Of a DNA stretch of 64,000 nucleotides, positions 4,066-34,403 are shown in pieces (positions within the stretch are counted from its first letter, which is position 1; every line of letters starts with the position of its first letter). A program made the translations under genes and the position numbers. The notes below the pieces were generated by a model. It saw nothing but the letters and a program-made list of their open reading frames with translations, did no database searches and was not told the DNA's origin. The stretch comes from a virus, in IMG/VR virus record IMGVR_UViG_3300045988_123515, positions 15,468-79,467 of that record; one strand, 5' to 3'.

Positions 4066-4086
4066 ACCAGTCAAAGAGCCACATGA

Positions 4087-4130
4087 GAGCCAGACTAAAT
4101 CCTAAAAGAAAGGAGGTCTGGCTCTATTTT
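4087..4130 (+). terminator. hairpin plus T-run immediately upstream of terL, enclosing the terL Shine-Dalgarno
   Basis: GAGCCAGAC (4087-4095) pairs with GTCTGGCTC (4116-4124). AGGAGG (4111-4116) lies at the loop/stem edge. TATTTTT then leads to the ATG at 4132. Confidence 0.55.
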
Positions 4131-4131
4131 T

Positions 4132-5820: not shown

Positions 5821-5822
5821 TT

Positions 5823-6415: not shown

Positions 6416-6835
6416 ATGACAACTCGTCAATATTTAAGCCAGATTGAAAAATATGACAATTTGATTCACAACAAAATAATTGAAGAAGAACAACTTAATA
6501 TCTTATCCATGAGTGTAAAATCCGTCCCGATTGGAGAAAAAGTGCAGACTTCTTCAAAACAAGACCCAATGGGAGATATGGTTGCAAAGATTATTGATTT
6601 ACGAGAAGAGATTTCAAAAATGGCAACAGATTTCTTGGAGCAAAAGCAAGAAATTATCAGAACGATAGAAACGGTAGAAGACCCGATTTTGTACGATGTT
6701 CTTTTCAAACGTTATGTGGAATACAAAACGCTTCTCAATATCGCAGATGAACTTGGATATTCCGAAGTGACTATCAAACGATTACATCTAAAGGCGGTAA
6801 AAGCAATAAAAAACATAAAAGGTTTTGAAAGTTGA
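6416..6835 (+). CDS. sigma-70 region-4-like late regulator (RinA/ArpU/DUF1492-type)
   Basis: C-terminal HTH LLNIADELGYSEVTIKRLHLKAVKAIKNI. Its stop codon overlaps the first GATAC repeat of module A. Confidence 0.5.
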   Translation: MTTRQYLSQIEKYDNLIHNKIIEEEQLNILSMSVKSVPIGEKVQTSSKQDPMGDMVAKIIDLREEISKMATDFLEQKQEIIRTIETVEDPILYDVLFKRYVEYKTLLNIADELGYSEVTIKRLHLKAVKAIKNIKGFES

Positions 6836-6876
6836 TACCTTTTGATACTGAATGATACTTACCAAATATGTATAAT
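6832..6876 (+). promoter_or_regulatory. GATAC-repeat module A: three GATAC at 10-bp phasing plus a -10 box
   Basis: GATAC at 6834, 6844 and 6854, with TATAAT at 6871-6876, 12 nt after the third repeat. The core is near-identical to modules B and C. Confidence 0.6.
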
Positions 6877-6883
6877 GTAAAGT

Positions 6884-6917
6884 AAAGCATTGGGCACAAA
6901 AACCTGATGCTTTTTTT
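6884..6917 (+). terminator. intrinsic-terminator-like hairpin directly after the module A -10 box
   Basis: AAAGCAT (6884-6890) pairs with ATGCTTT (6907-6913), followed by a T7 run. Confidence 0.6.
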
Positions 6918-6944
6918 ATTTAATGAAAGGAGTGTGTAGGTTTA

Positions 6945-8381
6945 TTGGCGAATAAAAGTAATTTCATAAATTTATGCCGTGGGGATTTTGGCAGGAAGAT
7001 AGCCTACACAGGCATTGAGCAAATTACTTCCGACAATGTGGTAAAAGTCGTTTCAGATACTATTGGTACACACAACAGAAACCGAACCATGATTGATTAT
7101 CTGTACAGGTACTACAAGGGCGATCAGCCTATCTTGTATCGTGAAAAGCTAGTACGTCCGGAAGTCAATAATAAGGTTTCTGAAAATCATGCACTTGAAA
7201 CAGTCAAATTCAAGGCAGGACAGATATATGGCGAACCAATTCAGTTTGTCTGTAAAAAGAAGAATACAAATGCAGAAACTAATGAACAAGTTGATTTGTT
7301 GAATGATTATCTGGATGAAGCCAATGCAGATGCCAGAAACATCCAGCTTGGAATTTACCAAAGTGCAATAGGAACTGCTTATAAAGCCATACTCAGAGAA
7401 GACGATTGGACGGAAGACAGCGATATGCCCCCATTCAGAATTTTTATTCCATATCCGGGCGATTGCTACATTGTGTATTCCAGAAAAAATGGTAAAGCAA
7501 TGCTATCCGTACAAGTCCTCAAAGACGAAAACGAAGAGCAATATTACTTATGCTATTCCAAGAATCAGTTTTATGAAATACAGAATGGAAAAGTAAAAAG
7601 GGTTGGAATTAATGGTTTTGGTGGAATTCCAATCATCGAATATCCGAACAACCATGACAGGCTATCTGATATTGAAATTGCAATCACATTGTTTGATGCA
7701 ATTAACAAGTATCAGTCTGATAGGCTGAATGGTGTTGAGCAATTTGTACAGGCATTCATGAAATTCAAGAACTGCGAGATAGATGAGAATGAATTTCTCA
7801 AGATGGTAAAACTTGGCGCTATTTCCGTGAAAGATACTGGAAGTGGTTGCCAGTCAGATGTTGAATTAATGACTGCCGAGTTGAATCAGTCTGAAAGCCA
7901 GGTTGCCAAAGATGATATATACAACAATATGCTGATTGTCGAAGCAATGCCAAATAGGCAGAGTAACACAGGAGGCGATACTGGAAACGCAGTGTATCTC
8001 AGGAATGGATGGGATTTTGCTGAACGTGATGCAAAGCTGGTAGAAGCATTTACCAAAGAAGCCGAGAAAGCATCAGTTAGGATTATTCTTAATATCATCC
8101 GCAAAACTACCAAAGATATTAAAATAACCACAAGAGACTTTGATGTAAAAATTACCAGAAACCCAACAGACAACATGCTCGTGAAAGCACAGGCGCTGGA
8201 TTATCTGGTTAAAAACAAAATACATCCACTCATTGCATTGATTACTTGCGGATTATTTAGTGATCCGCAGAAAGTATATGAAATGAGTTTCCCATACATG
8301 CAGTCTTTGTATGAGAATCCAGAAGAGGAAGTGCAGAAAGCACAAGCTCTACTTTCCGGTAAGGATGTGAAAGAAGAATGA
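6945..8381 (+). CDS. portal protein (SPP1 gp6-like)
   Basis: 478 aa, positioned after terL and before a MuF-like gene. TTG start. Confidence 0.8.
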   Translation: MANKSNFINLCRGDFGRKIAYTGIEQITSDNVVKVVSDTIGTHNRNRTMIDYLYRYYKGDQPILYREKLVRPEVNNKVSENHALETVKFKAGQIYGEPIQFVCKKKNTNAETNEQVDLLNDYLDEANADARNIQLGIYQSAIGTAYKAILREDDWTEDSDMPPFRIFIPYPGDCYIVYSRKNGKAMLSVQVLKDENEEQYYLCYSKNQFYEIQNGKVKRVGINGFGGIPIIEYPNNHDRLSDIEIAITLFDAINKYQSDRLNGVEQFVQAFMKFKNCEIDENEFLKMVKLGAISVKDTGSGCQSDVELMTAELNQSESQVAKDDIYNNMLIVEAMPNRQSNTGGDTGNAVYLRNGWDFAERDAKLVEAFTKEAEKASVRIILNIIRKTTKDIKITTRDFDVKITRNPTDNMLVKAQALDYLVKNKIHPLIALITCGLFSDPQKVYEMSFPYMQSLYENPEEEVQKAQALLSGKDVKEE

Positions 8382-9013
8382 GTGCAATAACTAACTTTGA
8401 TGAAATAAATGCACTTGATCAATCCAGACGGAGTGAGCCATACGAAGAGTATTTTGACAAGATGTCTATTTCTGATAAGCAAAAGAAATTAAGGATAACT
8501 TTTTCTGAACGAATGGAAGAAGTTATCCTTTATGTTTTGTCACTCATAGACACGATGGTTGAAAATGAAGAGGTTGACCAAGAATATATAGAGAACAGCT
8601 TGTACGATGAGTATATCGCAATAGTGGCTGTGTATTTCACAGTTGATAGCTACATATCGGGTTATGTTAGGCAGTTCTCACATGATGTTGTCCAATCAAC
8701 ATTCGATCACATTAAAGAAGAATATTATCTTTCCAGAGACAGAGCAATGTTTATTTCCGAATGCGAAGCCAATACTTCCTTAAATTACAAGGAATATACG
8801 GACGCAATCAAAGCAGGAAAAACGCATAAAACATGGAAAGACATTGGAGACAGAAGGGAGCGCAGAACACACCTTGAAGTTGGTGGGACAACGATTCCTA
8901 TAAGAGAGTTATTTGTGGTAGGAAACAGTTTAATGCTCTTTCCAAAAGACAATTCCCACAATCCAAGCGCAAAAGAGGTCGTGAACTGCCGATGCTCAAT
9001 TCAATACAGCTAA
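8378..9013 (+). CDS. head morphogenesis protein (SPP1 gp7 / Mu F-like)
   Basis: The C-terminal pattern RTHLEVGG...FPKD...NCRCS is characteristic of the Mu F domain. It follows the portal gene. Confidence 0.75.
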   Translation: MSAITNFDEINALDQSRRSEPYEEYFDKMSISDKQKKLRITFSERMEEVILYVLSLIDTMVENEEVDQEYIENSLYDEYIAIVAVYFTVDSYISGYVRQFSHDVVQSTFDHIKEEYYLSRDRAMFISECEANTSLNYKEYTDAIKAGKTHKTWKDIGDRRERRTHLEVGGTTIPIRELFVVGNSLMLFPKDNSHNPSAKEVVNCRCSIQYS

Positions 9014-9015
9014 TC

Positions 9016-9040
9016 AGAGACGAGAAATCGTCTCTTTTTT
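9016..9040 (+). terminator. rho-independent terminator
   Basis: AGAGACGA-gaaa-TCGTCTCT followed by TTTTT. Confidence 0.85.
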
Positions 9041-9139
9041 AATACATAAAAATAAAATGCATCCCGATAGCGTAATCATGGGAGACACCTTGTGCTGAGC
9101 GAACAGCGTTAAAAAGCGTACTGGTGATAGGAGATTTCA

Positions 9140-17995: not shown

Positions 17996-18388
17996 ATGAG
18001 AGGATTAAAACGTCAAAAGCAAACAATATACTGGTCTAGGATAGTCGAAGAACTTGACGGTATAGATACTAAACCAAAATATCAAAACCCAGAATTACAC
18101 AAATTTTCCGTATCAGCAACAGCAGGGACAAGTGAAGAACTGGCATCGGGTTATGTGCCTGAATACGATAGGTACATCACAAGTTTTGATCGAAATTTTA
18201 ATCCGCAGGAATCAGATGTTTTCTGGATTGATAAAATTCCAGAAATCAATGAGGATGGTTCTTTGGTTCTTGATGAATCCGGAAAGCCAACCGTTCCACC
18301 AGATTATGTTTTGGTTAAAATTATAAACAGCCAAAAGTCAAATGTGGCACGATACGGAATTTCAAAAATAGGTTCAGAAAATGGCTAG
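17996..18388 (+). CDS. putative head-tail joining protein
   Basis: 130 aa, assigned by position upstream of the tail tube gene. Confidence 0.3.
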   Translation: MRGLKRQKQTIYWSRIVEELDGIDTKPKYQNPELHKFSVSATAGTSEELASGYVPEYDRYITSFDRNFNPQESDVFWIDKIPEINEDGSLVLDESGKPTVPPDYVLVKIINSQKSNVARYGISKIGSENG

Positions 18389-18896
18389 AAAAATTATTAA
18401 ATGTAAGCTGAATGAAAAATCAATCCAGAGTGCAATTGATGAATTGAACAAGTATAAGGAAAACCTTATACGAAAGAACAAAATATTCGTTGATAAGCTT
18501 GCGGAAATTGGGTTGAATGTTGTACAAGTCACAATGGAATCAATACCTGATGAGGAAAAAGGTTCTTATTATACCGAAACCATAAATAACAGTAGTGGCG
18601 ATATAGTTGGTGTTGGTATTAGGCTTACAGGGGAAAATGTTCTTTTCATCGAGTTTTCGGCAGGTATTACTTATGGAACAGACACATATCCATTGCCCTC
18701 TGGCGAGCCGTATGGAGTTGGTACGTATCCTGGTCAAACACATGCTTATGACCCAAACGGATGGTGGTACATTGATAAAAGTGGACAGAAGCATCATTCC
18801 TATGGTAACAGGGCTTACATGCCTATGTATCATGCAGAAGAAGCTATTGTTTTGGCTGTTCATTCGGTTGCAAAAGAAGTATTTTCTGGTTCGTAA
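18381..18896 (+). CDS. putative neck/tail-completion protein
   Basis: 171 aa, assigned by position only. Confidence 0.3.
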   Translation: MARKIIKCKLNEKSIQSAIDELNKYKENLIRKNKIFVDKLAEIGLNVVQVTMESIPDEEKGSYYTETINNSSGDIVGVGIRLTGENVLFIEFSAGITYGTDTYPLPSGEPYGVGTYPGQTHAYDPNGWWYIDKSGQKHHSYGNRAYMPMYHAEEAIVLAVHSVAKEVFSGS

Positions 18897-18898
18897 AG

Positions 18899-18943
18899 TT
18901 GATACTAGATGATACTGAATGATACGGATATCTTTGGTATAAT
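18899..18943 (+). promoter_or_regulatory. GATAC-repeat module B
   Basis: GATAC at 18901, 18911 and 18921, with TATAAT at 18938-18943. Confidence 0.6.
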
Positions 18944-18952
18944 GTAATGTAT

Positions 18953-18985
18953 AAAAGCATCTACCTGATTGGTGGGTGCTTTTTT
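18953..18985 (+). terminator. intrinsic-terminator-like hairpin directly after the module B -10 box
   Basis: AAAAGCATCTACC-tgatt-GGTGGGTGCTTTT followed by a T run. Confidence 0.7.
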
Positions 18986-19009
18986 CGTACTCAAAATGAG
19001 GTGATGCAA

Positions 19010-19417
19010 ATGCTAGATACAGTAAAAAATCCAGTATCGGATACTTTTTCTTATTGGGGGAAATCCGTTGAAAAAGTTGTTGGAAAAGGCAATTACTCAA
19101 TGGATAGAAGTAAAACCTTAGCATCAAATAAAACAGCATACGCAAGGCTTTATATGCTCGGAAATCCTACATCACGTAGCGACCTTGAGGGGAATGAATG
19201 TGCCACTACACCATCGTTTCAGGTGGATAGTTTTGCATCGGGAACAAAACCATTAACTAAGGTATACAAGATAGACGATGCAAGCCACAAAGCTATGGTT
19301 GATATGGGGTATCGTAGAACATATGGCCCGGAATTAATGGAGAATGCTGATGGCAGTATAAAACGTGTTGTCAGCAGGTACAGCCGTGTATATGCAGGAA
19401 AATTATTAAACGAGTGA
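19010..19417 (+). CDS. hypothetical structural protein
   Basis: A GAGGTG RBS precedes the ATG at 19010. The longer ORF-track start would overlap the terminator hairpin. Confidence 0.45.
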   Translation: MLDTVKNPVSDTFSYWGKSVEKVVGKGNYSMDRSKTLASNKTAYARLYMLGNPTSRSDLEGNECATTPSFQVDSFASGTKPLTKVYKIDDASHKAMVDMGYRRTYGPELMENADGSIKRVVSRYSRVYAGKLLNE

Positions 19418-19438
19418 ACGCTTATGCGTTCTTTTTTT
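19416..19438 (+). terminator. rho-independent terminator
   Basis: GAACGC-ttat-GCGTTC followed by T7. Confidence 0.85.
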
Positions 19439-19467
19439 ATGCTTAAAACGAAAGTGAGGTGAGAACT

Positions 19468-19761
19468 TTGGAGCAGATTTTGAATTATGTAAAACCAGAA
19501 CTCCTGATTGTGGCAGTTGTGCTTTACTTCATTGGAATGGGAATCAAGAAATCTGAAACGATTTCTGACAAATACATTCCGGCAATCTTGGGTGTACTTG
19601 GAGTTTTGATTTGCGGAATATACGTTATTGCAACATGCAGTATATCTGGTGGTCAGGAAATCGCAATGGCTATTTTTACCGCAATCACGCAGGGAATCCT
19701 TGTAGCAGGACTTAGTAATTACGTGAACCAGATAATTAAGCAGGCAGGCAAAGAAGATTAG
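19468..19761 (+). CDS. holin-like protein (3 TM segments, charged C-terminus)
   Basis: TM segments LLIVAVVLYFIGMGI, IPAILGVLGVLICGIYVIA and IAMAIFTAITQGILVAGL, ending KQAGKED. TTG start 8 nt after GAGG. Confidence 0.55.
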   Translation: MEQILNYVKPELLIVAVVLYFIGMGIKKSETISDKYIPAILGVLGVLICGIYVIATCSISGGQEIAMAIFTAITQGILVAGLSNYVNQIIKQAGKED

Positions 19762-19840
19762 AAAGGACGGTGATCCTTTACATCTCCCAGCACAGGGTTA
19801 CGTGCAACAGTTCACTATTCACAATTATTGAAATGGAAAT

Positions 19841-19865
19841 GGCAGGTAAAATCCTGCCTTTTTTA
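19841..19865 (+). terminator. rho-independent terminator
   Basis: GGCAGG-taaaat-CCTGCC followed by T6. Confidence 0.8.
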
Positions 19866-19900
19866 TTGCATAAAATTCTTTTGAAGAAAGGAGATAAATA

Positions 19901-20383
19901 ATGTCTAGACTTACAACCCTTGGGGTGACGTTTGGTTATGGAGTTGAAACAATTGCTGGAACCAAACCTACAAAATTTACACAACTTGAATTACCATCGT
20001 CCATTGGCGGTATTTCCCTTGATACAGAGCAGATTGACGTTTCCGCTCTGGAAGATTTTATAACTCAGTATGCCGCAGGCAGACAGGATACAGGCGGTAC
20101 ATGGGAAGTCGAATTTATCATGGATCCAGACAAATCTGTTAAGCAGATTAAGAAACTGTATGAAGAATCCAAAACCGCAAAAACTGGCGGTAAAGCAACA
20201 TGGTTCCAGGTTAATTTCCCAGATATGACAGATGCATTTTTTGTAATTGCAGAGTGTGGTAGGGAAATCCCGATGCCGGAAATTGGCCAGAATGAGGCTG
20301 CTACAATGTCTATTTCTCTTATCATTTCAGAGTATAAGGGACTTGACACAAAAGTAGAGTGGACACCGGCAACAGACGTTTAA
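19901..20383 (+). CDS. major tail (tube) protein
   Basis: 160 aa, immediately upstream of the G/GT chaperone pair and the tape measure gene. Confidence 0.7.
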   Translation: MSRLTTLGVTFGYGVETIAGTKPTKFTQLELPSSIGGISLDTEQIDVSALEDFITQYAAGRQDTGGTWEVEFIMDPDKSVKQIKKLYEESKTAKTGGKATWFQVNFPDMTDAFFVIAECGREIPMPEIGQNEAATMSISLIISEYKGLDTKVEWTPATDV

Positions 20384-20409
20384 TATCATGAATTTCAGGG
20401 AGGCTAAAC

Positions 20410-20820
20410 ATGATAACTTTAAAAGTAAATGGCAAAGATTACAAACTTGTATTTGGATACGGAGCACTGTTAAAAACAGATATTCTGGACAGAATCCAGA
20501 ACTCAAACAAAGAAGGACTGAAAGGGGCAATTTCATTACTTCCAGAATTACTTCTTGTTGGTCTGCAAAAAAGACACAAAGATGAATTTGGATGGGAAAC
20601 AGAATCTGAAAAAGAAGTTGCTCTTGATAAGGTATACGACCTTCTGGATGAGTACGAAAGCGAAAGTACAGAGGATAATCCGCAGGATGGATTTATGCTT
20701 CTTCAACAAATGAATGATGAACTTGGTAAAAATGGTTTTTTATCCAGAATCATGAAGATAGCGGAAGCAGAGAGCCAGAATGCGACCAAGATTCCGCAGG
20801 ATCACAAGAAGAAATCCTAA
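20410..20820 (+). CDS. tail assembly chaperone (gpG analogue)
   Basis: 136-aa acidic protein before the tape measure gene. It contains a slippery site near its 3' end. Confidence 0.75.
   Translation: MITLKVNGKDYKLVFGYGALLKTDILDRIQNSNKEGLKGAISLLPELLLVGLQKRHKDEFGWETESEKEVALDKVYDLLDEYESESTEDNPQDGFMLLQQMNDELGKNGFLSRIMKIAEAESQNATKIPQDHKKKS
20736..20742 (+). promoter_or_regulatory. -1 programmed frameshift heptamer T_TTT_TTA
   Basis: In the G frame the codons are GGT TTT TTA. The -1 frame is open from 20730 to 21227. Confidence 0.7.
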
Positions 20821-21227
20821 CTTTTCATGATGCTGTTTATCAGCACATTCTTCCATTGTACTTGTCTTTAGGGGTTTCAAAAGCTGAGTTTATGGATTCC
20901 ACGCCATCGGAGTTGAAACCTTATTTGGATGCTGAAAAGCTACGCCAGGAACGCAAAGACGCAGAATTGTGGCAGGCAGGTATTTATACTACGTCTGCTA
21001 CTTTTACAGCAGTAGCCAATGCTCTTATGGGTAAAAAGTCCAAAGCCAAGTATTATGAGAAGCCACTATTGGAACAAGCGGAAGAAAAGAAAAGAGAAGA
21101 GGATGGGATTCTTTCTGAAGAAGAAAAGAAAAAGAGAAGAAATGCACTTCTTACAAGCCTACAGCTTATGCAGGCGAACTTTGAATTGAATCATAGTGAT
21201 GATGAAAAGGGCAGGCAGGATGAATAG
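20742..21227 (+). CDS. gpT-like extension of the tail assembly chaperone (GT fusion via -1 frameshift)
   Basis: The -1 frame overlaps the G gene 3' end by about 90 nt. It has no ATG start; the ORF track uses TTG 20856. Confidence 0.65.
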   Translation: MQNHEDSGSREPECDQDSAGSQEEILTFHDAVYQHILPLYLSLGVSKAEFMDSTPSELKPYLDAEKLRQERKDAELWQAGIYTTSATFTAVANALMGKKSKAKYYEKPLLEQAEEKKREEDGILSEEEKKKRRNALLTSLQLMQANFELNHSDDEKGRQDE

Positions 21228-21267
21228 TCTTGTCTGCCCTTATTTTTGATGAAAGGAGGGAGAATAC

Positions 21268-24200
21268 ATGGCTGAAAATACCATTGATACCCTTGAACTA
21301 CAAATTAGTAGTACAGCGGATGCGGCAGTCAAATCCATTAATAATATGTCCAGGGCATTGCAGAGTGTAAACAATACCATTACTGGTTTGAATTCTCATG
21401 GCTTACGTAGCTACGCAAAAGGTATTGGACAAGTTACCGCAGCTATTCAATCCCTTAATTCTGTAAATACCGGAAACATTGCCAAAGCGGTAACACAGCT
21501 TAAAGCACTAAGCAATATAGATTTTAGTAAATTTGAAAATAAGAAACTGAAAATAGATGTTGAGATTTCTGGTGGTGATGCTGCAAAGAAAATGCAGTAT
21601 GCCATTGAAAAATCTCTTGACCAAACCAAAATCGACACATCCAAAATTTCTGCACAGCTGATTAACGCTTTTGACTTAAAAGGTGGTGCTGCTTCCAGAT
21701 TGAGAAAGCAGATGGAAACGCTGGCAGAACAGCTTACAGCTTCTTTTGATGGAAAATCGTCTTTTAATTCTGGCGAATGGGGAAAAACCTTAGACCAGAT
21801 TGGAAATGATATTGTTAAAAGCGGTAAAACTGCAAGAAGTGAGTTGGGTAGTTATTTGGCAGGAGCGGAGCAGGAATGGATTGATTTTTATGATTTCTTC
21901 AAGAATAAGAAAATCTACGTTTCTGATATGCTTAAAAACGATGTCGGAAAGGGTGAATATCAGGATATTTTAAAGAACAATCTTGGTAATATCACAGTAG
22001 ACCCACTTAAAGGAATTAATCTGGATAAATCATGGAGTGAACTTGCTGATAAATTCCCAACCCTGATTTCACAAGACACAATTAATCAGGCAGATCAGCT
22101 TATTACAGTTCTTGAAACTTTAAAAAAAGTAAGAGATCAGATTAAGCCTATCAGCATTCAGGATTTATCCGGGGATGATTTATCATCTGCACAAAGCAAA
22201 GTATTTAGTCAGGTATCCGATACTGCAAGCCAGATAGGTACAAATATTGCCAAAAACATTCAGGATGCAGCAAAAACAGCAGATGGTCAATTTCCAATTG
22301 ATATTAAAATCAATCAAGATAAGATTGTGCATGATATTAAAAGTGCGATCAGTAAAGCATCTTCAATTACTTATGACCCCGTAAAAGTAACCCTTGATGT
22401 CGATACGAAAGAAATTAAGGATTCGATCAGTCAAAAGTTAAACAGCATTGATGCAGGGCAACTTCCACAAGTATCAGATGGACTTGAAAAAATTAAAAAC
22501 GCTTTGCAGTCAATGGCTGGATTGGATTTAAAGAGCACTGGAATCAATTCCACAATCAATGCTTTACAGAGGCTTGCCAGCACTGATTTGACGAATTTTG
22601 ATACTGCTAAGATATCTGGTATTTCTGATGCTTTATCAAAATTTGCAAATATACCCGACATTTCATTAAGCGTAAATCGTTTAGTTTCCTCTTTGGCTAA
22701 ATTATCTGCATCTGGTGGAAGCATCGGAACCGTAACATCTACTCTTCCTGTACTAGGCGATGCAGTCAGTAAGTTTGTGGCTAATGCATCAAATGCCGGA
22801 GCAGTTTCTGGACAATTAAATACATTTATTGCATCGTTGGCCAAATTAGCAACTGCCGGAAATAAGACTGGGCAAACAGCATCTCAGTTAGATTCCTTGT
22901 CGCAAGCAACATTGAATTTCTTCAACGTGATGAAAAATGCGCCTGAAATAAGTGCGAATACATTACGAATGACAGAAGCACTTGCACAACTGGCAAATTC
23001 GGGAAGTAAAGCGAATACAGCTACTAATATGGTTGCAAGCGGATTTAACCGATTATCTAGTGCAGGCAGAGGAATTACCGGTATTGGCAGTAAAATTGCT
23101 TCTGCGGTTTCCGGAGCAAGTAATTCATTGCTTAGTTATGGTAATACTGCGACAGGCACAGCAAAGAAAACAGGTAATCTGGTATCACGGCTTACCAGTC
23201 TTTATATAAAATTTTTTACGCTTAGTCGAATTATAAAATCTGTTTGGAAATCCGTTTCGTCTGCATCTGATTATGTTGAAACACTCAATTACTTCAACAG
23301 TGCTTTTGACCAAGTGACCGATGGCTTGGACACAAGCGGATGGGAAGATGCAGGAGCAAAATCAGCAGAGGAATATGTAGGCTCTTTTGAGAAACGTGCA
23401 AAAGAATTAACAAAAAAGCTCACCGGATTTGAAGTATCCGACGCAGGTGATCTAATGCGTTCTCAAAGCGGTAGCCTTGGCTTAAACCCTAATGATACGA
23501 TGAATTATCAAGCCACATACGCACAGATGGCATCTTCCATGGGAGCCACTGCCGATAATGCCACAAAACTTTCACAGGTATTAACTGAGATTGGTGGTGA
23601 CCTTGCGTCTGTAAAGAATCTTGACTTTAACGATGTATGGCAAGACATGGCATCCGGTATTGTGGGCATGAGCCGGGCATTGGATAAATACGGAATTAAT
23701 ATCCGTGTCGCAAACTTGCAGCAGGAACTTTACAATCTTGGAATTGATACAACTGTAGCAAAATTGAATCAGTCAGACAAGGCTATTTTAAGAACCATTG
23801 TAATCCTCAATAGTTCAAAATACGCCTGGGCGGACTTAGCTGAAACGATAAATCAGCCCGCTAATCAAGTCCGTATGCTCAAATCAAATTTTGAAGCACT
23901 GGCACGCTCAATTGGTACACTATTATTGCCTATTGTTGCAAAAGTGTTGCCATATTTGAACGGAATTACAATTGCAGTAGAACGAGTATTTTCTGGGATT
24001 GCAAGACTTTTAGGAATCAAACTTTCAGACTATGTATCATCCACAAAAAGTGCATCTATAGACATGGATTCCATGGCAGATGCATCTGATAATGCGGCTT
24101 CTGGGCTTGGAAATGCAGACAAAAACGCAAAGAAATTAAAGAAGTCTCTGTCTGTCTTACCATTTGACGAACTGAATCAGCTGAATAGCGATAAAGATTC

Positions 24201-27200
24201 TAGTGGTAGTTCTTCATCTGGTTCCGGTGGTGCAACACCACATATTCCGGCACTTGATGATGCACTTGCCGATGCTATTTCAAACTATCAAAAGGTTTGG
24301 GATGAAGCATTTGGGGGTATGGAGAATAAGGCTCAACAGGTTGCCAATAAAATTACTGATGCTTTTGAAAAAATCAGAAAAGCAGCAAAACCTACAACCA
24401 ATGCAATCAAAAAATTATGGAATGAGGGGCTTAGTAAGCTCGGTAATTTTTCTATTAATGCATTGAAAAATCTTTGGAAAAATTACTTAAAGCCAATGGG
24501 TAACTGGGTGCTTTCTGACAATTCAGGGCTTCCAAGATTCTTTAAAATTACTAACGACATCCTCAATAAAATCAATTGGTCAAAGCTTCAAACTGTTCTG
24601 AAAAATTTCTTTGAAATGCTTCAAAAACCAACGAAATTTGTCTGGACAGGACTTATGGATTTTTATGAAAATTTCTTAAAACCCATTTCTGCTTGGACAA
24701 TGAATGAAGCTATTCCAAGACTTGTTGACGCACTCACACGATTTGGAAACGCTATTCACTGGGATGAACTGAATGCAGCACTTTCAGATTTTTGGAGTGC
24801 GCTGGCACCGTTCGCTCAAAACGTAGGTGAGGGGCTTGTATCATTCTTTGAAAATCTTCTTAAAATAGGAGCGGATTTCATTAATGATAAGGTTCCGAAT
24901 GGCTTAAAATCCATTTCCGAAGCGTTAAAGAATATTGATCCAGAAACAGCCAAACAAATCGGTGTAGGGCTTGTAAAAGTAGCTGTTGCAATCGCAGGAT
25001 TTAAAGGCCTGACGTTTATCGGTAGCATAATTGGAAAAGATAGTCCTTTAGCAAAAGGTTTAGCATTACTATCTGGGCATCCGTATATCGCTATCGCATT
25101 TGGGTTGGCAGGTGTTGTGGCGGCATTGGATAATTTTGGCATCATAGACGTTGATTGGGAGTGGCTTTCCGGAGAAATTGGCAAGGTCAAAGATGCTATT
25201 TCCAATTTTATTGATAAAGTTGATTGGGATGCAATCGGTACATCAATCGGTAAATTTGCAGATGCATTTGCACCGTTTGCAGCAGGTTTTGCAGATAGTT
25301 TAATTGCTGGATTACAAGGGCTTCTTGATTTAGGTGCAGACCTCTTAAATGCAATCGGTAATGCAATTGGATGGCTGGGTGATGCCCTCGGAAAAGTTGA
25401 TCCAGAAATACTTCAAAAGTTAGGAAATGCGCTTGGTGTATTCGTGGAAGTCAAATTGACTTTTGCTATCGTCAGCAAATTAACAGGGTTAGCTGGAGCA
25501 ATTGTGACTTTTGGAAATTCTTTGGGAAACGGAAAAGTTGCTACCAATACTTCCACATTCGCAAAAACATTAACGCTTTTAAAGGGAGCAATTACTGGTT
25601 TGGCAGTTGGCATGGCTTTGACAGAAGAAACAGTGGGCGAAGCAAAGGATGCGGAAGGCTATGGACAGGACATGGAAAAAGGTTTTTCCTATTTGAGTGC
25701 AGCTGTGGAAGACCTTGGAGTAAAAGCAGGTGTTTCTGATGGACAAATGCAGCAATTGAATAGTCAACTTCAAAGTATGAAAGACCAAGGACTTATATAC
25801 GATCCCTCCGCACTCCAAAATTTTGCAGATAAATTATATGATGCAGGAATTAAAGCGGGAGATTTAAAAGATTCTGCTTTGAATACATCAGAAGTAGTTG
25901 ACCAGTTGCGAATTAGCCTTGGAGATTCTGAAAAAGCAGCTAACTTTGTAGGGAAAAATGGATTCACGTATTTATCTGGTGCGTTAAATTTAATGTATCA
26001 AAAAGGTAAAATAAGTCTTGACCAGTACAAACAATTGAATGAGTATCTAAACACAGAAGATGGTGCTAAAACTGCTGCCGAGAAATATAGGACGCTCTCT
26101 GATAAAATTTCAAAAATGGGAATAAATTCAGATGAACTCTACAATAATATGCCAAGTACCATCGAGTCCGCACTCAATCTTGCTCAAACAAGTATTGACA
26201 ATTTTAATGTATCTCCTGTAGTTGAAGGATTGCAATCGCTTACATCTGAGGCACAAAAAGTAGAATTTGCAAATCTTATAACGCAATCATCAAATGCCAT
26301 TGACGGCATGGGCGGCATCTGGAAAAATGGAAAACAAATCCTGGGTACTGATGCACTTGCTATACACAATGCCATTCAGGCCGGACTAGAGCCGGATAAA
26401 GATGGTTATTATGACCTTGGAAACGGTCAGATGGTACAATACGGTAAATCAATCAAGGACAATAAAGAACCAATCAAATCCACATTAGACGATACCTTGA
26501 AGTCAATACTTACAGACAAAGATCTGATGGGAGAGGGCTACAATCTTATGTATGATATATCCGGATATCATATTGACGGATATGTAGAAGGCATGGCAGG
26601 ATTAGGATATAAAGAGGTTAAGAAAGCTTATGAAGCTGCCTTTAACATAGATCAAAATGTTAAAGATAACACCAAAAAAGATGGAGAATCACTCGCTCGA
26701 AATACCGTTGCAGGATATAACGATTATTTGAAAAAGGATGGAGTGACAAATACTTCTCTTGTTACAGAGCAGTGGGCTAAGCAAGGAATCACTGATCCGG
26801 CAGAAAACAAGCTGGAGATTCATTCTCCATCCAAACTTTTTGCCCGATATGCAGAATATGTCGAAAAAGGCTACTCTGATAAAATCAAGAGCCTTGCGAC
26901 AATAACTGCTGCATCCATGAATACTTGGATTTTACAGGGAATCCAGACACCAATAATTAGTAAACTGAGGATTGAAAAAGGTAGTTCCGGTCTGGCAAGT
27001 GATTATGGCACAGCTTTTGGAAAAGGGTTATCTTCTGGTATACTTGAAACCAAAGATAAAAATGAATCCGCTGTCGGCACAGTTCTCTCCGCATTGAAAA
27101 CCAAGCTGAACACCTACAATACCTCATTTGAGAATATTGGTGGAAAGTACATGAGAAAGCTTAATTCAGGAATCAATTCTGAAAAGAATGATCTTGAAAA

Positions 27201-27735
27201 CAATGTAAAAAACATTACAGGAAGCGTTAAAAGTGCATTTGGTTCTATCCAAGATTCAATGTGGTCATATGGCCATAACGCAATCCAGAATTTTGCCAAC
27301 GGTATCCAATCAGTGCATATCAACCTTCCACACCTTAAAATGGATTATACTGATTGGCAGGATGGCGACAACCATAGATGGCGCTGGAACTCTTCTGTAG
27401 ATTGGTATGCTAAAGGCGGTCTGTTTAATGGCGCACAAGTAATTGGTGTTGGTGAAGCCGGACGAGAAGCTGTTCTTCCTCTGGAAAACCGCCGTACCAT
27501 GAACATGATTGCAGATAGCATTGTATCCAGTTCAGACAATACAATGGGATTGACCAAAGAAGAAATGGCACAAGCTGTAGCCCAAGGAGTTGCCATGGCA
27601 ATGATGAACAACTCTGGAAATAACCCGAAATATATCATGAACAGTATAAATGTCAATGGACGAGAGATTATGAAAGCAGTGACCGAAGCTGAAAACGATG
27701 CTAATTATCGTTTGAATCCGTCACCAGCTTATTGA
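21268..27735 (+). CDS. tail tape measure protein
   Basis: 2155 aa, alpha-helical and repetitive, positioned after G/GT. Confidence 0.9.
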   Translation: MAENTIDTLELQISSTADAAVKSINNMSRALQSVNNTITGLNSHGLRSYAKGIGQVTAAIQSLNSVNTGNIAKAVTQLKALSNIDFSKFENKKLKIDVEISGGDAAKKMQYAIEKSLDQTKIDTSKISAQLINAFDLKGGAASRLRKQMETLAEQLTASFDGKSSFNSGEWGKTLDQIGNDIVKSGKTARSELGSYLAGAEQEWIDFYDFFKNKKIYVSDMLKNDVGKGEYQDILKNNLGNITVDPLKGINLDKSWSELADKFPTLISQDTINQADQLITVLETLKKVRDQIKPISIQDLSGDDLSSAQSKVFSQVSDTASQIGTNIAKNIQDAAKTADGQFPIDIKINQDKIVHDIKSAISKASSITYDPVKVTLDVDTKEIKDSISQKLNSIDAGQLPQVSDGLEKIKNALQSMAGLDLKSTGINSTINALQRLASTDLTNFDTAKISGISDALSKFANIPDISLSVNRLVSSLAKLSASGGSIGTVTSTLPVLGDAVSKFVANASNAGAVSGQLNTFIASLAKLATAGNKTGQTASQLDSLSQATLNFFNVMKNAPEISANTLRMTEALAQLANSGSKANTATNMVASGFNRLSSAGRGITGIGSKIASAVSGASNSLLSYGNTATGTAKKTGNLVSRLTSLYIKFFTLSRIIKSVWKSVSSASDYVETLNYFNSAFDQVTDGLDTSGWEDAGAKSAEEYVGSFEKRAKELTKKLTGFEVSDAGDLMRSQSGSLGLNPNDTMNYQATYAQMASSMGATADNATKLSQVLTEIGGDLASVKNLDFNDVWQDMASGIVGMSRALDKYGINIRVANLQQELYNLGIDTTVAKLNQSDKAILRTIVILNSSKYAWADLAETINQPANQVRMLKSNFEALARSIGTLLLPIVAKVLPYLNGITIAVERVFSGIARLLGIKLSDYVSSTKSASIDMDSMADASDNAASGLGNADKNAKKLKKSLSVLPFDELNQLNSDKDSSGSSSSGSGGATPHIPALDDALADAISNYQKVWDEAFGGMENKAQQVANKITDAFEKIRKAAKPTTNAIKKLWNEGLSKLGNFSINALKNLWKNYLKPMGNWVLSDNSGLPRFFKITNDILNKINWSKLQTVLKNFFEMLQKPTKFVWTGLMDFYENFLKPISAWTMNEAIPRLVDALTRFGNAIHWDELNAALSDFWSALAPFAQNVGEGLVSFFENLLKIGADFINDKVPNGLKSISEALKNIDPETAKQIGVGLVKVAVAIAGFKGLTFIGSIIGKDSPLAKGLALLSGHPYIAIAFGLAGVVAALDNFGIIDVDWEWLSGEIGKVKDAISNFIDKVDWDAIGTSIGKFADAFAPFAAGFADSLIAGLQGLLDLGADLLNAIGNAIGWLGDALGKVDPEILQKLGNALGVFVEVKLTFAIVSKLTGLAGAIVTFGNSLGNGKVATNTSTFAKTLTLLKGAITGLAVGMALTEETVGEAKDAEGYGQDMEKGFSYLSAAVEDLGVKAGVSDGQMQQLNSQLQSMKDQGLIYDPSALQNFADKLYDAGIKAGDLKDSALNTSEVVDQLRISLGDSEKAANFVGKNGFTYLSGALNLMYQKGKISLDQYKQLNEYLNTEDGAKTAAEKYRTLSDKISKMGINSDELYNNMPSTIESALNLAQTSIDNFNVSPVVEGLQSLTSEAQKVEFANLITQSSNAIDGMGGIWKNGKQILGTDALAIHNAIQAGLEPDKDGYYDLGNGQMVQYGKSIKDNKEPIKSTLDDTLKSILTDKDLMGEGYNLMYDISGYHIDGYVEGMAGLGYKEVKKAYEAAFNIDQNVKDNTKKDGESLARNTVAGYNDYLKKDGVTNTSLVTEQWAKQGITDPAENKLEIHSPSKLFARYAEYVEKGYSDKIKSLATITAASMNTWILQGIQTPIISKLRIEKGSSGLASDYGTAFGKGLSSGILETKDKNESAVGTVLSALKTKLNTYNTSFENIGGKYMRKLNSGINSEKNDLENNVKNITGSVKSAFGSIQDSMWSYGHNAIQNFANGIQSVHINLPHLKMDYTDWQDGDNHRWRWNSSVDWYAKGGLFNGAQVIGVGEAGREAVLPLENRRTMNMIADSIVSSSDNTMGLTKEEMAQAVAQGVAMAMMNNSGNNPKYIMNSINVNGREIMKAVTEAENDANYRLNPSPAY

Positions 27736-27795
27736 TTTTCTCGTAACCGTGTGTTATTATATTAGCATATAAGAGGAGACACGGTTTGAAGTTTT

Positions 27796-27860
27796 GAGCC
27801 GCTGAGAAACTTAATATTTCTCTATTTGAGGAATTTTTTGTTTACTTGGCGGCTCTTTTT
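27796..27860 (+). terminator. long-loop hairpin plus T-run after the tape measure gene
   Basis: GAGCCGC (27796-27802) pairs with GCGGCTC (27849-27855), then TTTTTATTT. Confidence 0.4.
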
Positions 27861-27920
27861 ATTTAACCGTTAATTTTGGTAAAACCAGTGGGATAGGGTA
27901 GCTCCCGAAAAGCGTAAACC

Positions 27921-27949
27921 TTGATACGCCTGTCCACTGTTTTTATAAA
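27921..27949 (+). promoter_or_regulatory. sigma-A-type promoter for the inserted three-gene unit
   Basis: TTGATA, a 17-nt spacer, then TATAAA. Confidence 0.55.
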
Positions 27950-28005
27950 TCAAGGATTCTGGCATATTACGGAGACGCCAACGACCAACAAGGAGGTTAT
28001 CTATT

Positions 28006-29082
28006 ATGAGAAAAGAACAGTCTATTTCCGAAAAAAGAGAACGAGATTTCACGGGTGTTTTTATACCTTCACGATTATATCTTACGAATAAATTCAGCCC
28101 TAGAGAAAAATTTTTATTAGTAGAAATATATAGTCTTCGCAAGAAAGATAAAAATGGAGATTGTTTTGCAAGTAATCGGCATTTCGCGGATTTTATTGGT
28201 GTATCTGAGCGTACTGTCCAGTCAATGCTTAATGGATTAAAAACAGAGGGATATGTAGAAGCATGGTATGAATATGAAAAAGAGAACCCGAAAGTTATTC
28301 ATTGTAGACACCTTGTTTTGACAGAAAAATTTTATGAAGAATTTATTAATGAACATGAGATAAAACAATCTTCTGAACAAGGTGAGAAAAAACACATGGG
28401 GGACGGTGAGGAAAAACGCACCTCCCGTGGTGAGGAAATCTGCATGTATAAGTATAACAAGAGAATAAGTATAACAGAAGAAAAGAATACAGATAAAAAC
28501 TGTATTTTATCAAATACAGAAAAAGAGACTTTACCAAGTGCTGGTAAAGACAATCAGACTTCTGCTCCTAATAATTATAATAAATTAAATATATATAATA
28601 TACCCCCTAGAACAAAGGAGCAGAAAGCCAACCGTTATAATACCAGGAACCAATCATCCCTCTTTGATTATAAAGACGAGGATGTTGAGAATTTGGTAAC
28701 CGAGATATACGAAAGTATTTACGGAGCCAAGGAGAATATTTTTGAAGACCACGACATTTGCCTGTCCATATTTTTGATTACAGAGTTTTTTAAGAAATAT
28801 CAAAAGTACCGTGAAGAGAAACATCCGATGGTTACGCAAAATCAAGCAGAAAATATTCTGAAAATGATTCGTAACCCAGATACAGACATGGCGAAAGATG
28901 ATTTGGTGGACGATAAAGAAGAACCGCTGGTTTATCTTGAAATGATGGAAGAACACTTTAAAACCAAGTGGGGGAAGAAAAATGGTGGTGATTTCAATTA
29001 TCGTATTATGCTGTTTTTTAAGGATACCACGCAGAACCTGTTGTACCAAAGAGTGAAACATAAAAGGGAGGACGCACTATGA
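28006..29082 (+). CDS. winged-HTH DNA-binding protein (DnaD-N/replication-initiator-like N-terminus) with an N/K/E-rich tail
   Basis: FSPREKFLLVEIYSL...FASNRHFADFIGVSERTVQSMLNGLKTEGYVE. Confidence 0.4.
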   Translation: MRKEQSISEKRERDFTGVFIPSRLYLTNKFSPREKFLLVEIYSLRKKDKNGDCFASNRHFADFIGVSERTVQSMLNGLKTEGYVEAWYEYEKENPKVIHCRHLVLTEKFYEEFINEHEIKQSSEQGEKKHMGDGEEKRTSRGEEICMYKYNKRISITEEKNTDKNCILSNTEKETLPSAGKDNQTSAPNNYNKLNIYNIPPRTKEQKANRYNTRNQSSLFDYKDEDVENLVTEIYESIYGAKENIFEDHDICLSIFLITEFFKKYQKYREEKHPMVTQNQAENILKMIRNPDTDMAKDDLVDDKEEPLVYLEMMEEHFKTKWGKKNGGDFNYRIMLFFKDTTQNLLYQRVKHKREDAL

Positions 29083-29220
29083 GGTATACGAGGGCAAGTA
29101 ACAGACATAATAAAACGCTGAAATTTGATTTAAAATTTGCCACTTGATAAAATATAGGCACAGCCCAGAAAAACCGATTCTAGGCGAAAAATCATAAGCA
29201 ATTGATGGAGAAGTGAACAA

Positions 29221-29553
29221 ATGAGTAGAGTAGGTAGAGAACTTCCGGCAGAATATTCTGATCGGTTTGACGAATTACGTCAAAACAGAGTAGAAATTAG
29301 TTATTACAAGTACGGTACTGCCAGAGATAACTTTGGTGAAAAGTTAGTAAATGCTCTGGAAACGCATGATATGTGCATAAAAAAATATCAGGAAACTGGA
29401 AACACCGAATATTTATGTGATGCTGCTAATTACCTGATGTTTGAGTTTATGTACCCACAAAAGCATGGAGCATATTTTAAAGCTACCGACAGTGGGGGAA
29501 GTGCAGGTGTTGCCGGTACGCCAATAAATCAATTGAGAGAAAAATGGTACTAA
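29221..29553 (+). CDS. hypothetical protein
   Basis: 110-aa ORF with a GGAGAAG RBS. Confidence 0.5.
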   Translation: MSRVGRELPAEYSDRFDELRQNRVEISYYKYGTARDNFGEKLVNALETHDMCIKKYQETGNTEYLCDAANYLMFEFMYPQKHGAYFKATDSGGSAGVAGTPINQLREKWY

Positions 29554-29617
29554 AGTATTCCCTTAAATATCCTAATGTGGTACAATATATTTACCAATTT
29601 CAAGGGAGGAAAGGGAT

Positions 29618-30487
29618 ATGAAAAAAAGCAAAAAGTTATTATCAATTATGACTGTGTTGTTACTGATTGTGTGCATGGCAGTTCCTGTGTCCGCTGCAAC
29701 AAAAATCAGTAAGAAAAAAGCAACATTAAAAGTCGGGCAAACATTGCAATTGAAAGTAACTGGAACGAAAAAGAAACCAAAATGGACAAGTAGCAAGAAG
29801 TCTGTGGCAACAGTATCTTCTAAAGGGCGAGTTAAAGCCAAGAAAAAAGGGACTGCCACAATTACTGCAAAAGTAGGCAAAAAGAAATACACTTGCAAAG
29901 TCACCGTGAAAAATGCAAAAAATAACACAAATAAAAAGCCACAGAATTATGGTGTGACATATTACACTGAATCTACAGACTATGGAGCTATAGCCATATT
30001 TGAAAACCACTATGATTACCCTGTGAGTTTAAGTGCAGAATTTGTATATTATCTAAATGGATACATGGTGGGAGCAGAAAGGGATACAAACTATGCGTTT
30101 GCGCCACATACAAAGTGTGCGCTTCAAGGGTGGAATTATGATAAGGAGTGGGATTCATACAAAATAAACCTCACAATCAAGAAAGCTGGATCAAACCTCA
30201 TTTACAACAATTCCGGAATACGCTATAAAGCAAATTTTGGCATGGGAAATGTTATGGTTCAGGTTGATAATAAGGGAAAGAAAAATTATTTTACAGAAAT
30301 TGCGGTTGTATTTTATCAGAACGGAAGAATGGTTGGGTATGAGCATCGGTTTGCAGATGTAAAAACACCTGGCTCTACAGCGTATCTTGAATTTAGTTTT
30401 CCTCACGGGAGAGATTACAAAACTATAACACCAGACCGATACGAAGTGTACGTAAACAGTTCGTATACATATGATTGGATTAAATAA
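29618..30487 (+). CDS. secreted protein with a Big_2 (bacterial Ig-like) domain
   Basis: Signal peptide MKKSKKLLSIMTVLLLIVCMAVPVSAA. The Big_2-like stretch is ATLKVGQTLQLKVTG...WTSSKKSVATVSSKGRVKAKKKGTATITA. Confidence 0.7.
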   Translation: MKKSKKLLSIMTVLLLIVCMAVPVSAATKISKKKATLKVGQTLQLKVTGTKKKPKWTSSKKSVATVSSKGRVKAKKKGTATITAKVGKKKYTCKVTVKNAKNNTNKKPQNYGVTYYTESTDYGAIAIFENHYDYPVSLSAEFVYYLNGYMVGAERDTNYAFAPHTKCALQGWNYDKEWDSYKINLTIKKAGSNLIYNNSGIRYKANFGMGNVMVQVDNKGKKNYFTEIAVVFYQNGRMVGYEHRFADVKTPGSTAYLEFSFPHGRDYKTITPDRYEVYVNSSYTYDWIK

Positions 30488-30524
30488 ACCAAAACAGCAA
30501 AAAGTCACGAAGCAAGAATATTAA

Positions 30525-30570
30525 TTGATACTTAAAGATACTGAATGATACTGCTGTTTTGTGATAAAAT
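30525..30570 (+). promoter_or_regulatory. GATAC-repeat module C
   Basis: GATAC at 30527, 30537 and 30547, with a -10-like ATAAAAT at 30564-30570. Confidence 0.55.
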
Positions 30571-30580
30571 ATAGAATCAT

Positions 30581-30614
30581 AAAGCGTTTACCTGTACGGG
30601 TAGGCGCTTTTTTT
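30581..30614 (+). terminator. intrinsic-terminator-like hairpin after the module C -10 box
   Basis: AAAGCGTTTACC-tgtac-GGGTAGGCGCTTT followed by a T run. Confidence 0.7.
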
Positions 30615-30633
30615 ATATCACGAAACTGTTTAA

Positions 30634-30656
30634 GGGAGCAAATGCTCTCTTTTTTT
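30634..30656 (+). terminator. second tandem hairpin plus T7 run
   Basis: GGGAGCA..TGCTCTC followed by TTTTTTT, just before the RBS of the Dit-like gene. Confidence 0.5.
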
Positions 30657-30670: not shown

Positions 30671-31036
30671 ATGGCAGCAGAAATAATGTTGAAAGTAAAT
30701 GGTGTAGCGGTTAGATGCCCGTCAAAATTTGAGTGGGGCTTGCAAGATGTATCTGCATCTGAATCAGGGCGAACCGATGATGCTTTGATGCATAAAAACA
30801 GAGTTGCACAAAAAAGGAAAATAAGTCTTGGGTGGAACGGTCTTGGATGGGCTGAAACATCCAAAGTATTACAAGTGTTTAATCCTGAATACATAAGCGT
30901 AACATATCCCGATATGTTGTCTGGAAAATACGAAACCAGAACATTTTATGTTGGAGATCGTTCAGCACCAGTCAAATGGTGGTGGATTGGGAATCAAAGA
31001 ACTGAATCTGTTGAATTTGATATTATTGAAAGGTAG
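30671..31036 (+). CDS. putative distal tail protein (small Dit-like)
   Basis: 121 aa, the first gene after the tape-measure/insert region and before the large Tal-like protein. Confidence 0.4.
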   Translation: MAAEIMLKVNGVAVRCPSKFEWGLQDVSASESGRTDDALMHKNRVAQKRKISLGWNGLGWAETSKVLQVFNPEYISVTYPDMLSGKYETRTFYVGDRSAPVKWWWIGNQRTESVEFDIIER

Positions 31037-31039
31037 AAA

Positions 31040-33877: not shown

Positions 33878-33900
33878 TTAATTAAAGGAGGCACAGAACA

Positions 33901-34401: not shown

Positions 34402-34403
34402 TG

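Follow-up and report, generated by a model that had tools for sequence, protein, structure and literature searches.

The stretch of viral DNA analysed here is a window of 64,000 nucleotides (IMG/VR record IMGVR_UViG_3300045988_123515, positions 15,468 to 79,467). It carries the gene of a small regulator, ltrB (6416-6835, + strand), and three copies of a short module in which repeated boxes are followed by a -10 hexamer and a terminator hairpin. These copies, designated A (6832-6917), B (18899-18985) and C (30525-30656), stand ahead of the blocks of head, tail and tail-tip/lysis genes. A preliminary description, made from the sequence alone, had drawn attention to them; they are interpreted below as probable late promoters under the control of LtrB.

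Anatomy of the Modules

The exact pattern GATAC-N5-GATAC-N5-GATAC occurs three times in the window (at 6834, 18901 and 30527), each time on the + strand, whereas 0.08 occurrences are expected from shuffled sequences. With looser patterns, no fourth module was found in the 64-kb window. Each copy reads TTGATAC-N5-GATAC-TGAAT-GATAC (A, 6832-6858, predicted LtrB sites at about -49 to -25; B, 18899-18925; C, 30525-30551), with TT preceding the first box and an invariant CTGAAT between boxes 2 and 3. In module A, box 1 is shared with the regulator gene, since the ltrB stop codon, TGA (6833-6835), lies inside TTGATAC.

The third box is followed by a -10 hexamer, at a distance of 12 bp in A and B and 13 bp in C. 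The promoter core of module A (6869-6883, + strand, as are all features of the modules) consists of TG and TATAAT (6871-6876), that of module B (18935-18950) of TGg and TATAAT (18938-18943), and that of module C (30560-30577) of TGTGa and TAAAAT (30565-30570), an extended -10 of the TRTGn type. The position of a -35 element is filled by the conserved cTGAat between two boxes, which matches three of the six consensus bases.

In each core, a second -10-like hexamer follows the first at an offset of 7 bp: TATAAT-G-TAAAGT in A (6871-6883, the second hexamer at 6878-6883), TAATGT as the second hexamer in B (18938-18950, at 18945-18950), and TAAAAT-A-TAGAAT in C (30565-30577, at 30572-30577). Such tandem hexamers occur in nearly every module, and also in distant LtrB lineages (L214, L231, L365, L436 and L423). 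They are explained neither by a plain promoter nor by the Q paradigm of lambdoid phages.

A hairpin begins 7-10 nt past the -10 hexamer in all three modules. The terminator of module A (6884-6917) is formed by a hairpin at 6884-6913 (-12 kcal/mol) with T7, and that of module B (18953-18985) by a hairpin at 18954-18982 (about -17 to -20 kcal/mol) with T6. Module C has two terminators, the first (30581-30614) with a hairpin at 30581-30610 (about -17 kcal/mol) and T7, and the second (30632-30656) with its hairpin at 30632-30651 and again T7. With folding energies of -12 to -20 kcal/mol, T-runs of six or seven and a conserved structure, these are intrinsic terminators. No Rfam family was found at the modules.

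The anatomy thus agrees in most points with the preliminary description, which had reported three modules, a 10-bp phasing of the GATAC starts in every copy (confirmed by the exact N5 match), a start of copy A within the stop codon of a sigma-r4-like gene, a hairpin with a T-run soon past the -10, and a second tandem terminator in copy C. Two of its points need amendment. Its TATAAT boxes stand in A and B, but the ATAAAA assigned to copy C gives way to TAAAAT after TGTGa as the better reading; and while there is indeed no -35 element, the position is not empty but holds the conserved cTGAat.

Modules A-C are identical at 77% per column across 105 nt. Because this identity covers the hairpin arms too, the whole unit of boxes, -10 and hairpin appears to have been copied as one piece and not put together on three occasions. 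Two other promoter calls were set aside: TTGATA-16-GATACT, with box 1 as the -35 and box 3 as the -10, and TTTACA-18-TATCAT on the minus strand. Neither is kept in copies B and C, nor where lineages use different boxes.

The Regulator LtrB

The ltrB gene encodes a late transcriptional regulator of 139 amino acids with DUF1492 and a sigma-70 region 4-like helix-turn-helix (HTH), as assigned by Pfam, PHROG and an AlphaFold (AF2) model. Its Pfam scores are 29 bits for DUF1492 (PF07374; cut-off 21.5) and 25.5 bits for Sigma70_r4 (cut-off 24.1). In PHROG it matches phrog_36, 'transcriptional regulator' (E 1.9e-18), and weakly, in the HTH part only, phrog_79, 'Q-like' (E 8.8e-5). The model, with a predicted local distance difference test score (pLDDT) of 80, shows a long helical hairpin at the N-terminus and, with a pLDDT above 90, a C-terminal domain of three helices. 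The best local Foldseek matches of this domain are to sigma region 4 (SigF, SigD4, and sigmaE region 4 on -35 DNA); the Foldseek E-values for LtrB are all weak, and the local sigma-4 matches alone are meaningful. In sub-threshold NCBIfam matches, residues 42-133 align with the C-terminal third of sigma factors, and a profile search of PDB sequences with LtrB gave nothing significant.

In the Ltr superfamily as described by Quiles-Puchalt et al. (2013, PMC3753634), DUF1492 constitutes family III (LtrB), and the product of 6416-6835 is an LtrB/DUF1492 member of this superfamily of late activators. The gene is the last one ahead of a terminator and lies 5' of the portal and head genes, but downstream of terL. 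An identical LtrB protein is encoded on 140 contigs.

The window has a second sigma-4-like gene (12155-12412), for which no link to the GATAC modules was found. It belongs to a region (12155-12446) with an 85-residue sigma-region-4-like open reading frame (ORF), a strong terminator within the 3' end of that ORF (12356-12376), and, after it, a sigma-A-like promoter, TTTAAA-17-TATAAT (12418-12446).

Conservation and Co-Variation across Phage Lineages

Homologues of ltrB were taken from annotated phages, from IMG/VR contigs, from further IMG/VR contigs found by the box pattern, and from bacterial genomes. The same order of elements is present 3' of ltrB in 16 distinct lineages, with protein identity down to 24%. 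Two to six short boxes phased at 10 bp run from or over the ltrB stop codon; the last box is followed after 12-13 bp by a -10 hexamer that is often TG-extended, then, 6-90 nt further on, by a hairpin, and then by the ribosome-binding site (RBS) of the first late gene. From lineage to lineage the box sequence changes (GATAC, AAGAC, AGCAA, AGCAT, CCCAC, GAGAY, GAGCA, CCTAT x6 and CGCAAC x4) and the spacer sequence varies as well, while the N12-13 distance to the -10 is constant. A script found a canonical terminator past the -10 in 13 of the 16 lineages; a further one (L243) was recognised by eye. In the L139 group, the hairpin is followed by a weak T-run. In bacterial genomes, only distant relatives of ltrB were found, in Faecalibacterium, Lachnospiraceae and Oscillospiraceae. 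One cultured relative is the Faecalibacterium prausnitzii prophage at NZ_CP186691 (652-655 kb).

Related phages of 60-80 kb have orthologous modules at the other two positions as well, 5' of homologues of the 19010 gene (position B) and of the 30671 gene (position C). A sister lineage, in which LtrB is 43% identical (for example an 81-kb contig with three matches), has the order TerL, LtrB, module, portal. Its modules stand at the same three positions, and all of them have boxes of the AACAC/CTTAC/ATAAC type, with GATAC in none. In a third lineage, CATAC boxes are found at positions B and C. By sequence comparison, the boxes thus co-vary with the regulator. Because they change jointly at three dispersed sites along with the regulator, as is predicted for a regulon, they are likely to be LtrB sites; this joint change is the strongest in-silico support for that assignment.

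The hairpin is also maintained. Among 19 module hairpins, compensatory double changes are seen in five of the nine pairs, which indicates that the structure is under selection.

Scans of the collection with GATAC-N5-GATAC-N5-GATAC and with GATACTGAATGATAC gave mostly chance matches in coding DNA and a handful of true modules.

Comparison with Known Late Switches

The Ltr superfamily comprises RinA, ArpU, LtrA/Sigma70_r4, LtrB/DUF1492 and LtrC, late activators of Gram-positive siphophages that are the sole phage proteins required to switch on the late operon (PMC3753634). Its members, including a DUF1492 protein, bind direct repeats located 'immediately distal' to the sequence that encodes them, and the phages have a terminator within the intergenic stretch that parts the regulator from the late genes (PMC3753634). 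In phage Phi13, the repeats lie at -107 to -42 of a sigma-A type start, and the TATA box is essential (Phi13 Ltr 2026, PMC13123087). For TP901-1, the passages of PMC13123087 and PMC3152322 that cite the work on this phage place the Alt repeats at -76 to -32 and give the late promoter a -10 and no -35. In RinA phages, the terminator separates the mapped 5' end from the binding sequences, which are located over 155 bp upstream of that end (PMC3152322).

Similar to these systems, the window encodes a small regulator whose C-terminal part is an HTH, apparently as the last gene of a pre-late operon, with direct repeats right after or over its stop codon and a terminator in the same intergenic region. 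A sigma-A type -10 without a -35, here predicted to be activator-dependent, precedes morphogenesis and lysis genes in both. There are differences, however. There are three promoter modules, whereas a single late promoter is reported for 80alpha; ltrB is located after terL and before the portal gene, and not before terS; the boxes are short 5-mers in exact 10-bp phase that reach -25; the hairpin begins essentially at the start site; and LtrB is acidic. The module is nevertheless a member of the known Ltr late-promoter kind, atypical in that its regulator is not basic and is encoded after terL. What is new is the precise grammar (boxes to -25, N12, an extended -10 and tandem hexamers), the occurrence of three copies as one predicted regulon, and a terminator so near the start that a downstream promoter is excluded.

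The sequence of 80alpha shows two TGGCAG repeats, TAAAAT/TATTAT, a terminator and terS, in this order. In a side observation, the string formed by the -10, GA and TAGTGTAG was seen 3' of the RinA repeats of this phage (L359 225-365), as TATTATGATAGTGTAGG. The same promoter-core string recurs 3' of the boxes of two LtrB lineages (L243/L246), as TAAAATGATAGTGTAG or TAAAATGATAGTGTGG, which hints at a promoter-core element common to Ltr families.

The sequence of TP901-1 has a terminator-like hairpin directly before the terS RBS, and, between the Alt-dependent promoter and this hairpin, a leader that is about 500 nt long and contains two tRNA genes (L360 1135-1376). The Alt-controlled late promoter of TP901-1 and the modules therefore share direct repeats at a -10 promoter without a -35 and a terminator-like hairpin before the late genes, but differ in that TP901-1 has one promoter with a long, tRNA-bearing leader and the window has three modules. 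In a Clostridia genome (L367 1510-1771), tRNA genes were noted beside an ltrB locus; the window has one tRNA gene (1009-1077).

The lambda promoter PR' has both hexamers, -35 and -10, and fires without an activator. The Q-controlled PR'-tR' arrangement of lambda, also present in phages 21 and 82, resembles the modules in that a DNA site at the promoter is followed by an early terminator and the late genes are reached only via read-through, and in that further terminators occur inside the late region. LtrB, however, has no detectable similarity to Q proteins in sequence, nor in fold among the top 50 matches listed, and the module is present in three copies. No sigma-pause element was seen at the expected place. 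The conserved second -10-like hexamer lies 1 nt after the first, at about -5 to +1, and the terminator spans about +3 to +35, against about +190 in lambda. The module is thus not of the Q family, though it may work alike.

The middle promoters of phage T4 combine a MotA box at -30 with AsiA, in what is called sigma appropriation. In these promoters, as is predicted for the modules, a site for a phage protein near -30 replaces the -35 at a good extended -10. The differences are that LtrB itself resembles sigma region 4, that the boxes are repeated, and that a terminator follows; no AsiA-like partner was identified.

The Terminator between Promoter and Genes

From the last T-run to the start codon there are 27 nt in A, 24 nt in B and 14 nt in C (where the gene starts with the ATG at 30671), and these stretches contain the RBSs. 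Promoters between terminator and gene were searched for at modules A-C, and no -10 fits. If the first hexamer is the -10, the predicted start lies 0-4 nt ahead of the hairpin, and therefore each late RNA would open with a complete terminator. Because no downstream promoter fits, the RNAs of the portal, tail and tail-tip genes have to cross the hairpins, two of them in the case of C, where this is plainest.

A start inside the hairpin, by which the RNA would escape its own terminator, was also considered. Only copy A, with the second hexamer as its -10, would lose the stem in this way; in copies B and C and in most relatives, the start-site test has the hairpin transcribed in full.

Terminators are not confined to the modules. 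Ahead of the holin-like gene (19416-19431) and of the tape measure gene (21207-21241, -24.5 kcal/mol), the RBS follows the terminator directly and there is no room for a promoter. Intergenic terminators on the + strand within the late blocks were observed at 9016-9035, 14177-14204, 15292-15323, 19416-19431, 19841-19858 and 21207-21241. For the terminators ahead of essential genes, that of terL included, there are two readings: they attenuate leakily, or resistance of late polymerases extends over the whole region.

A Model for Late Transcription

Taken as a whole, the best explanation is that the modules are late promoters forming an LtrB regulon, at which LtrB also aids the passage of the terminator; we give this a rough probability of 0.7. 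Its two parts differ in strength. That the promoters depend on LtrB is very probable, whereas antitermination by LtrB, be it short-range or processive, is put forward tentatively.

According to this model, LtrB would be made as the last gene product of the preceding operon. Several copies of it would occupy one face of the DNA at the three boxes, which are phased at 10 bp and span about -49 to -25 in place of a -35, and bound LtrB would let the host sigma-A RNA polymerase use the TG-extended -10. The terminator would halt polymerases arriving from upstream, that is from the LtrB operon and, at copy C, from an inserted island, so that the head, tail and tail-tip/lysis blocks would stay silent until LtrB is present. 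Polymerases starting at the LtrB promoter would have to pass this terminator too, in the likeliest case because LtrB stays on the early elongation complex, or alters it, in such a way that the hairpin cannot act. The logic would be like that of lambda Q; the ancestry is not. Since there is no -35, activity of the promoter probably requires LtrB, in contrast to lambda PR'.

The preliminary description had proposed late promoters dependent on an activator or sigma-like protein, and this is well supported by the family of LtrB, the position of the boxes, the N12-13 spacing and the joint change of the boxes. The search of related phages that it recommended has likewise borne fruit, with the grammar recovered after ltrB in 16 lineages and modules at positions B and C too. 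Its suggestion of Q-type late antitermination holds in so far as late RNA has to cross a terminator, but processive antitermination of the Q type is tentative: LtrB is no Q homologue, there is no -35, no sigma-pause element stands at the expected place, and terL has a strong terminator before it with no box module.

Several points favour an LtrB-dependent bypass of the terminator. The promoter is kept before the terminator, though a plain activator would be served more simply by the reverse order; the hairpin appears to have been duplicated with the unit; and the terminators are strong, and double at C. Such an arrangement also makes sense for a temperate phage, which would shield its holin, tail and lysis genes from polymerases of the early operon or of the island. 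In literature searches, no proposal of antitermination by RinA, ArpU, Alt or Ltr was found.

A number of observations weigh against this model. The late start sites are predictions from sequence, and in RinA phages a 5' end has been mapped 23-24 nt before the terS ATG, 3' of the terminator (PMC3152322). Ltr proteins are described as basic, whereas LtrB has an isoelectric point of 5.5 (20 K+R versus 23 D+E). It has no Pfam Q domain, and no Q structure is among the top 50 fold matches listed. Residues of the recognition helix show no visible tracking with the box sequence, in a small sample of 15 sequences. In one lineage (L262/263/282), the promoter at position C lacks the hairpin. Three points of re-initiation would be needless under fully processive antitermination. 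Finally, a strong hairpin with a T-run (4086-4131, -21.8 kcal/mol) stands right before the terL start codon with no boxes upstream; because this terminator lacks a box module, the phage appears to tolerate terminators before essential genes by other means. The terL RBS is within the loop and 3' side of this hairpin, which may serve as a terminator or control the translation of terminase.

Alternative Explanations

The strongest rival is a plain activator combined with a leaky terminator. LtrB would recruit polymerase only, and a partly efficient hairpin would end the upstream unit and dampen leakage, with no factor-dependent antitermination; the transcripts that survive would gain a 5' stem-loop against 5' exonucleases. 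A hairpin at the 5' end is the geometry of known 5' stabilisers in Firmicutes, and here the hairpin is 0-4 nt from the predicted 5' end. The rival would also account for the terminators without boxes before terL (4086-4125), the holin-like gene (19416) and the tape measure gene (21207), and for the lineage that does without a hairpin at position C, and three promoters would be sensible if each unit ends at the next hairpin. On the other hand, strong T6-T7 terminators, in tandem at C, would waste most late transcripts if placed after the promoter. The order of promoter and then terminator is nonetheless found in all LtrB lineages examined, in 80alpha (RinA) and in TP901-1 (Alt), and the unit appears to have been duplicated along with its hairpin. 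A leaky terminator with a role as a 5' stabiliser is a serious contender that falls somewhat short of an even chance, and is about equally likely as LtrB-dependent passage of the terminator.

Far less probable is that the true late starts are 3' of the terminators, with LtrB acting from a distance as the mapping suggested for the RinA phages phi11 and 80alpha. The RinA-dependent 5' end past the terminator (PMC3152322) speaks for such an action, and 80alpha does have the order of repeat, -10-like element and terminator. However, the 27, 24 and 14 nt left before the start codons are occupied by RBSs and fit no -10, and the fixed N12 to a TG-extended -10 would be left without explanation. In Phi13, moreover, the start is beside the repeats and the TATA box is essential (PMC13123087).

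The preliminary description had offered as its own alternative that the GAUAC repeats act in RNA read from upstream genes, where a bound protein would block the folding of the terminator. Repeats followed by a terminator do recall the outline of protein-dependent attenuators, and module A is co-transcribed with ltrB. Folding gave no alternative pairing of repeat and terminator arm common to the three copies, however, and the conserved traits are properties of DNA: a -10 at a fixed distance, to which the grammar is anchored, the TRTGn motif and the 10-bp helical phasing. The regulator has a DNA-binding, sigma-4-like HTH fold, and Ltr proteins bind repeat DNA in gel shifts (PMC3753634). Because DNA-type features are conserved, no common pairing exists and no Rfam family was found, this reading is very unlikely.

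A true lambdoid Q system, with a constitutive promoter, a short terminated RNA and a Q homologue loading at a sigma-dependent pause, is largely refuted, since against the layout of promoter and terminator and the weak 'Q-like' match to phrog_79 stand the lack of a Q domain in Pfam and of a Q structure among the fold matches mentioned above, the missing -35 that makes a constitutive promoter unlikely, and a second -10-like hexamer at about -5 to +1, outside the transcribed +1 to +25.

Transcription Units and Genome Context

Module A serves a unit (6945-18896, + strand) of portal, head morphogenesis, major head and further genes. The unit served by module B (19010-30487, + strand) holds a gene of unknown function, the holin-like gene, the major tail gene, chaperones, the tape measure gene and the inserted island. 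That of module C (30671-37301, + strand) holds the gene of a DUF6711 protein, a large tail protein gene, further genes, an integrase and an endolysin, and is ended by a terminator at 37307-37335. Structural blocks had been predicted behind all three modules, and this holds for the portal and head genes. Unit B, however, opens with the unknown and holin-like genes before the major tail and tape measure genes, and unit C, the putative Dit/Tal block of that description, holds tail-tip genes with matches to DUF6711 and a 'tail protein' family.

The phage is a temperate gut phage, with an integrase (34754-35773), a repressor on the minus strand (39078-39476) and several anti-repressors. Its relatives among the collected phages carry the annotation Ca. 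Heliusvirales; they come from human faeces, and Oscillospirales or Ruminococcus are given as hosts. The integrase gene lies inside the late region, between the tail genes and the endolysin gene (35880-37301). If attP is beside int, integration would part the endolysin gene from promoter C in the prophage.

Between the tape measure gene and module C, the segment 27886-30487 holds, in this order, an int-alpA RNA (Rfam RF02996, 51 bits), a replication-initiator-like gene (28006-29082), a small ORF and the gene of a Big_2 Ig-domain protein (29618-30487). This segment looks like an island inserted within the tail operon. Module C, with its double terminator, stands at the downstream edge of the island.

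Upstream of ltrB, an HNH/NUMOD1 homing-endonuclease gene (5808-6392) overlaps the end of terL, which encodes 562 amino acids here. In close relatives, terL encodes 578 amino acids and abuts ltrB directly, so the HNH gene is a recent insertion.

A near-identical terminator and leader (GCCTTGYRGG...CCYGCAGGGCTTTT...ATGCC, RBS, ATGCCA) was noted 5' of an HNH gene at loci (L209 2985-3040, L211 2930-3025 and L212 3010-3075) of two gut phages, PV036449 and PV036417, and of Streptococcus phage Javan630, where the HNH ORF is unannotated. Such recurrence suggests either a mobile HNH cassette or a leader RNA that is conserved.

Significance

A very large group of Firmicutes phages, which includes mobilisers of staphylococcal pathogenicity islands and abundant prophages of the human gut, relies on Ltr-type regulators to switch on its packaging, virion and lysis genes. 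The modules described here give a defined grammar for locating late promoters in uncultured phage genomes. They contain a whole control region (boxes, -10 and terminator) in about 85 bp, three per genome and with natural specificity variants, and are a compact test object for whether Ltr proteins activate only or also suppress termination. Their design also shows how a temperate phage can insulate its lethal late genes from read-through on either side of inserted islands.

In a broader reading, which we consider rather unlikely but worth stating, LtrB and by extension the Ltr superfamily (RinA, ArpU, LtrA-C and perhaps Alt) would be loading factors derived from sigma region 4, which both recruit sigma-A polymerase to a promoter without a -35 and confer resistance to a nearby terminator. 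If true, they would be the Gram-positive functional counterpart of lambda Q, with no shared ancestry. The order of repeats, -10 and terminator in LtrB phages, 80alpha and TP901-1 would then be explained, as would a RinA site more than 155 bp from the mapped 5' end.

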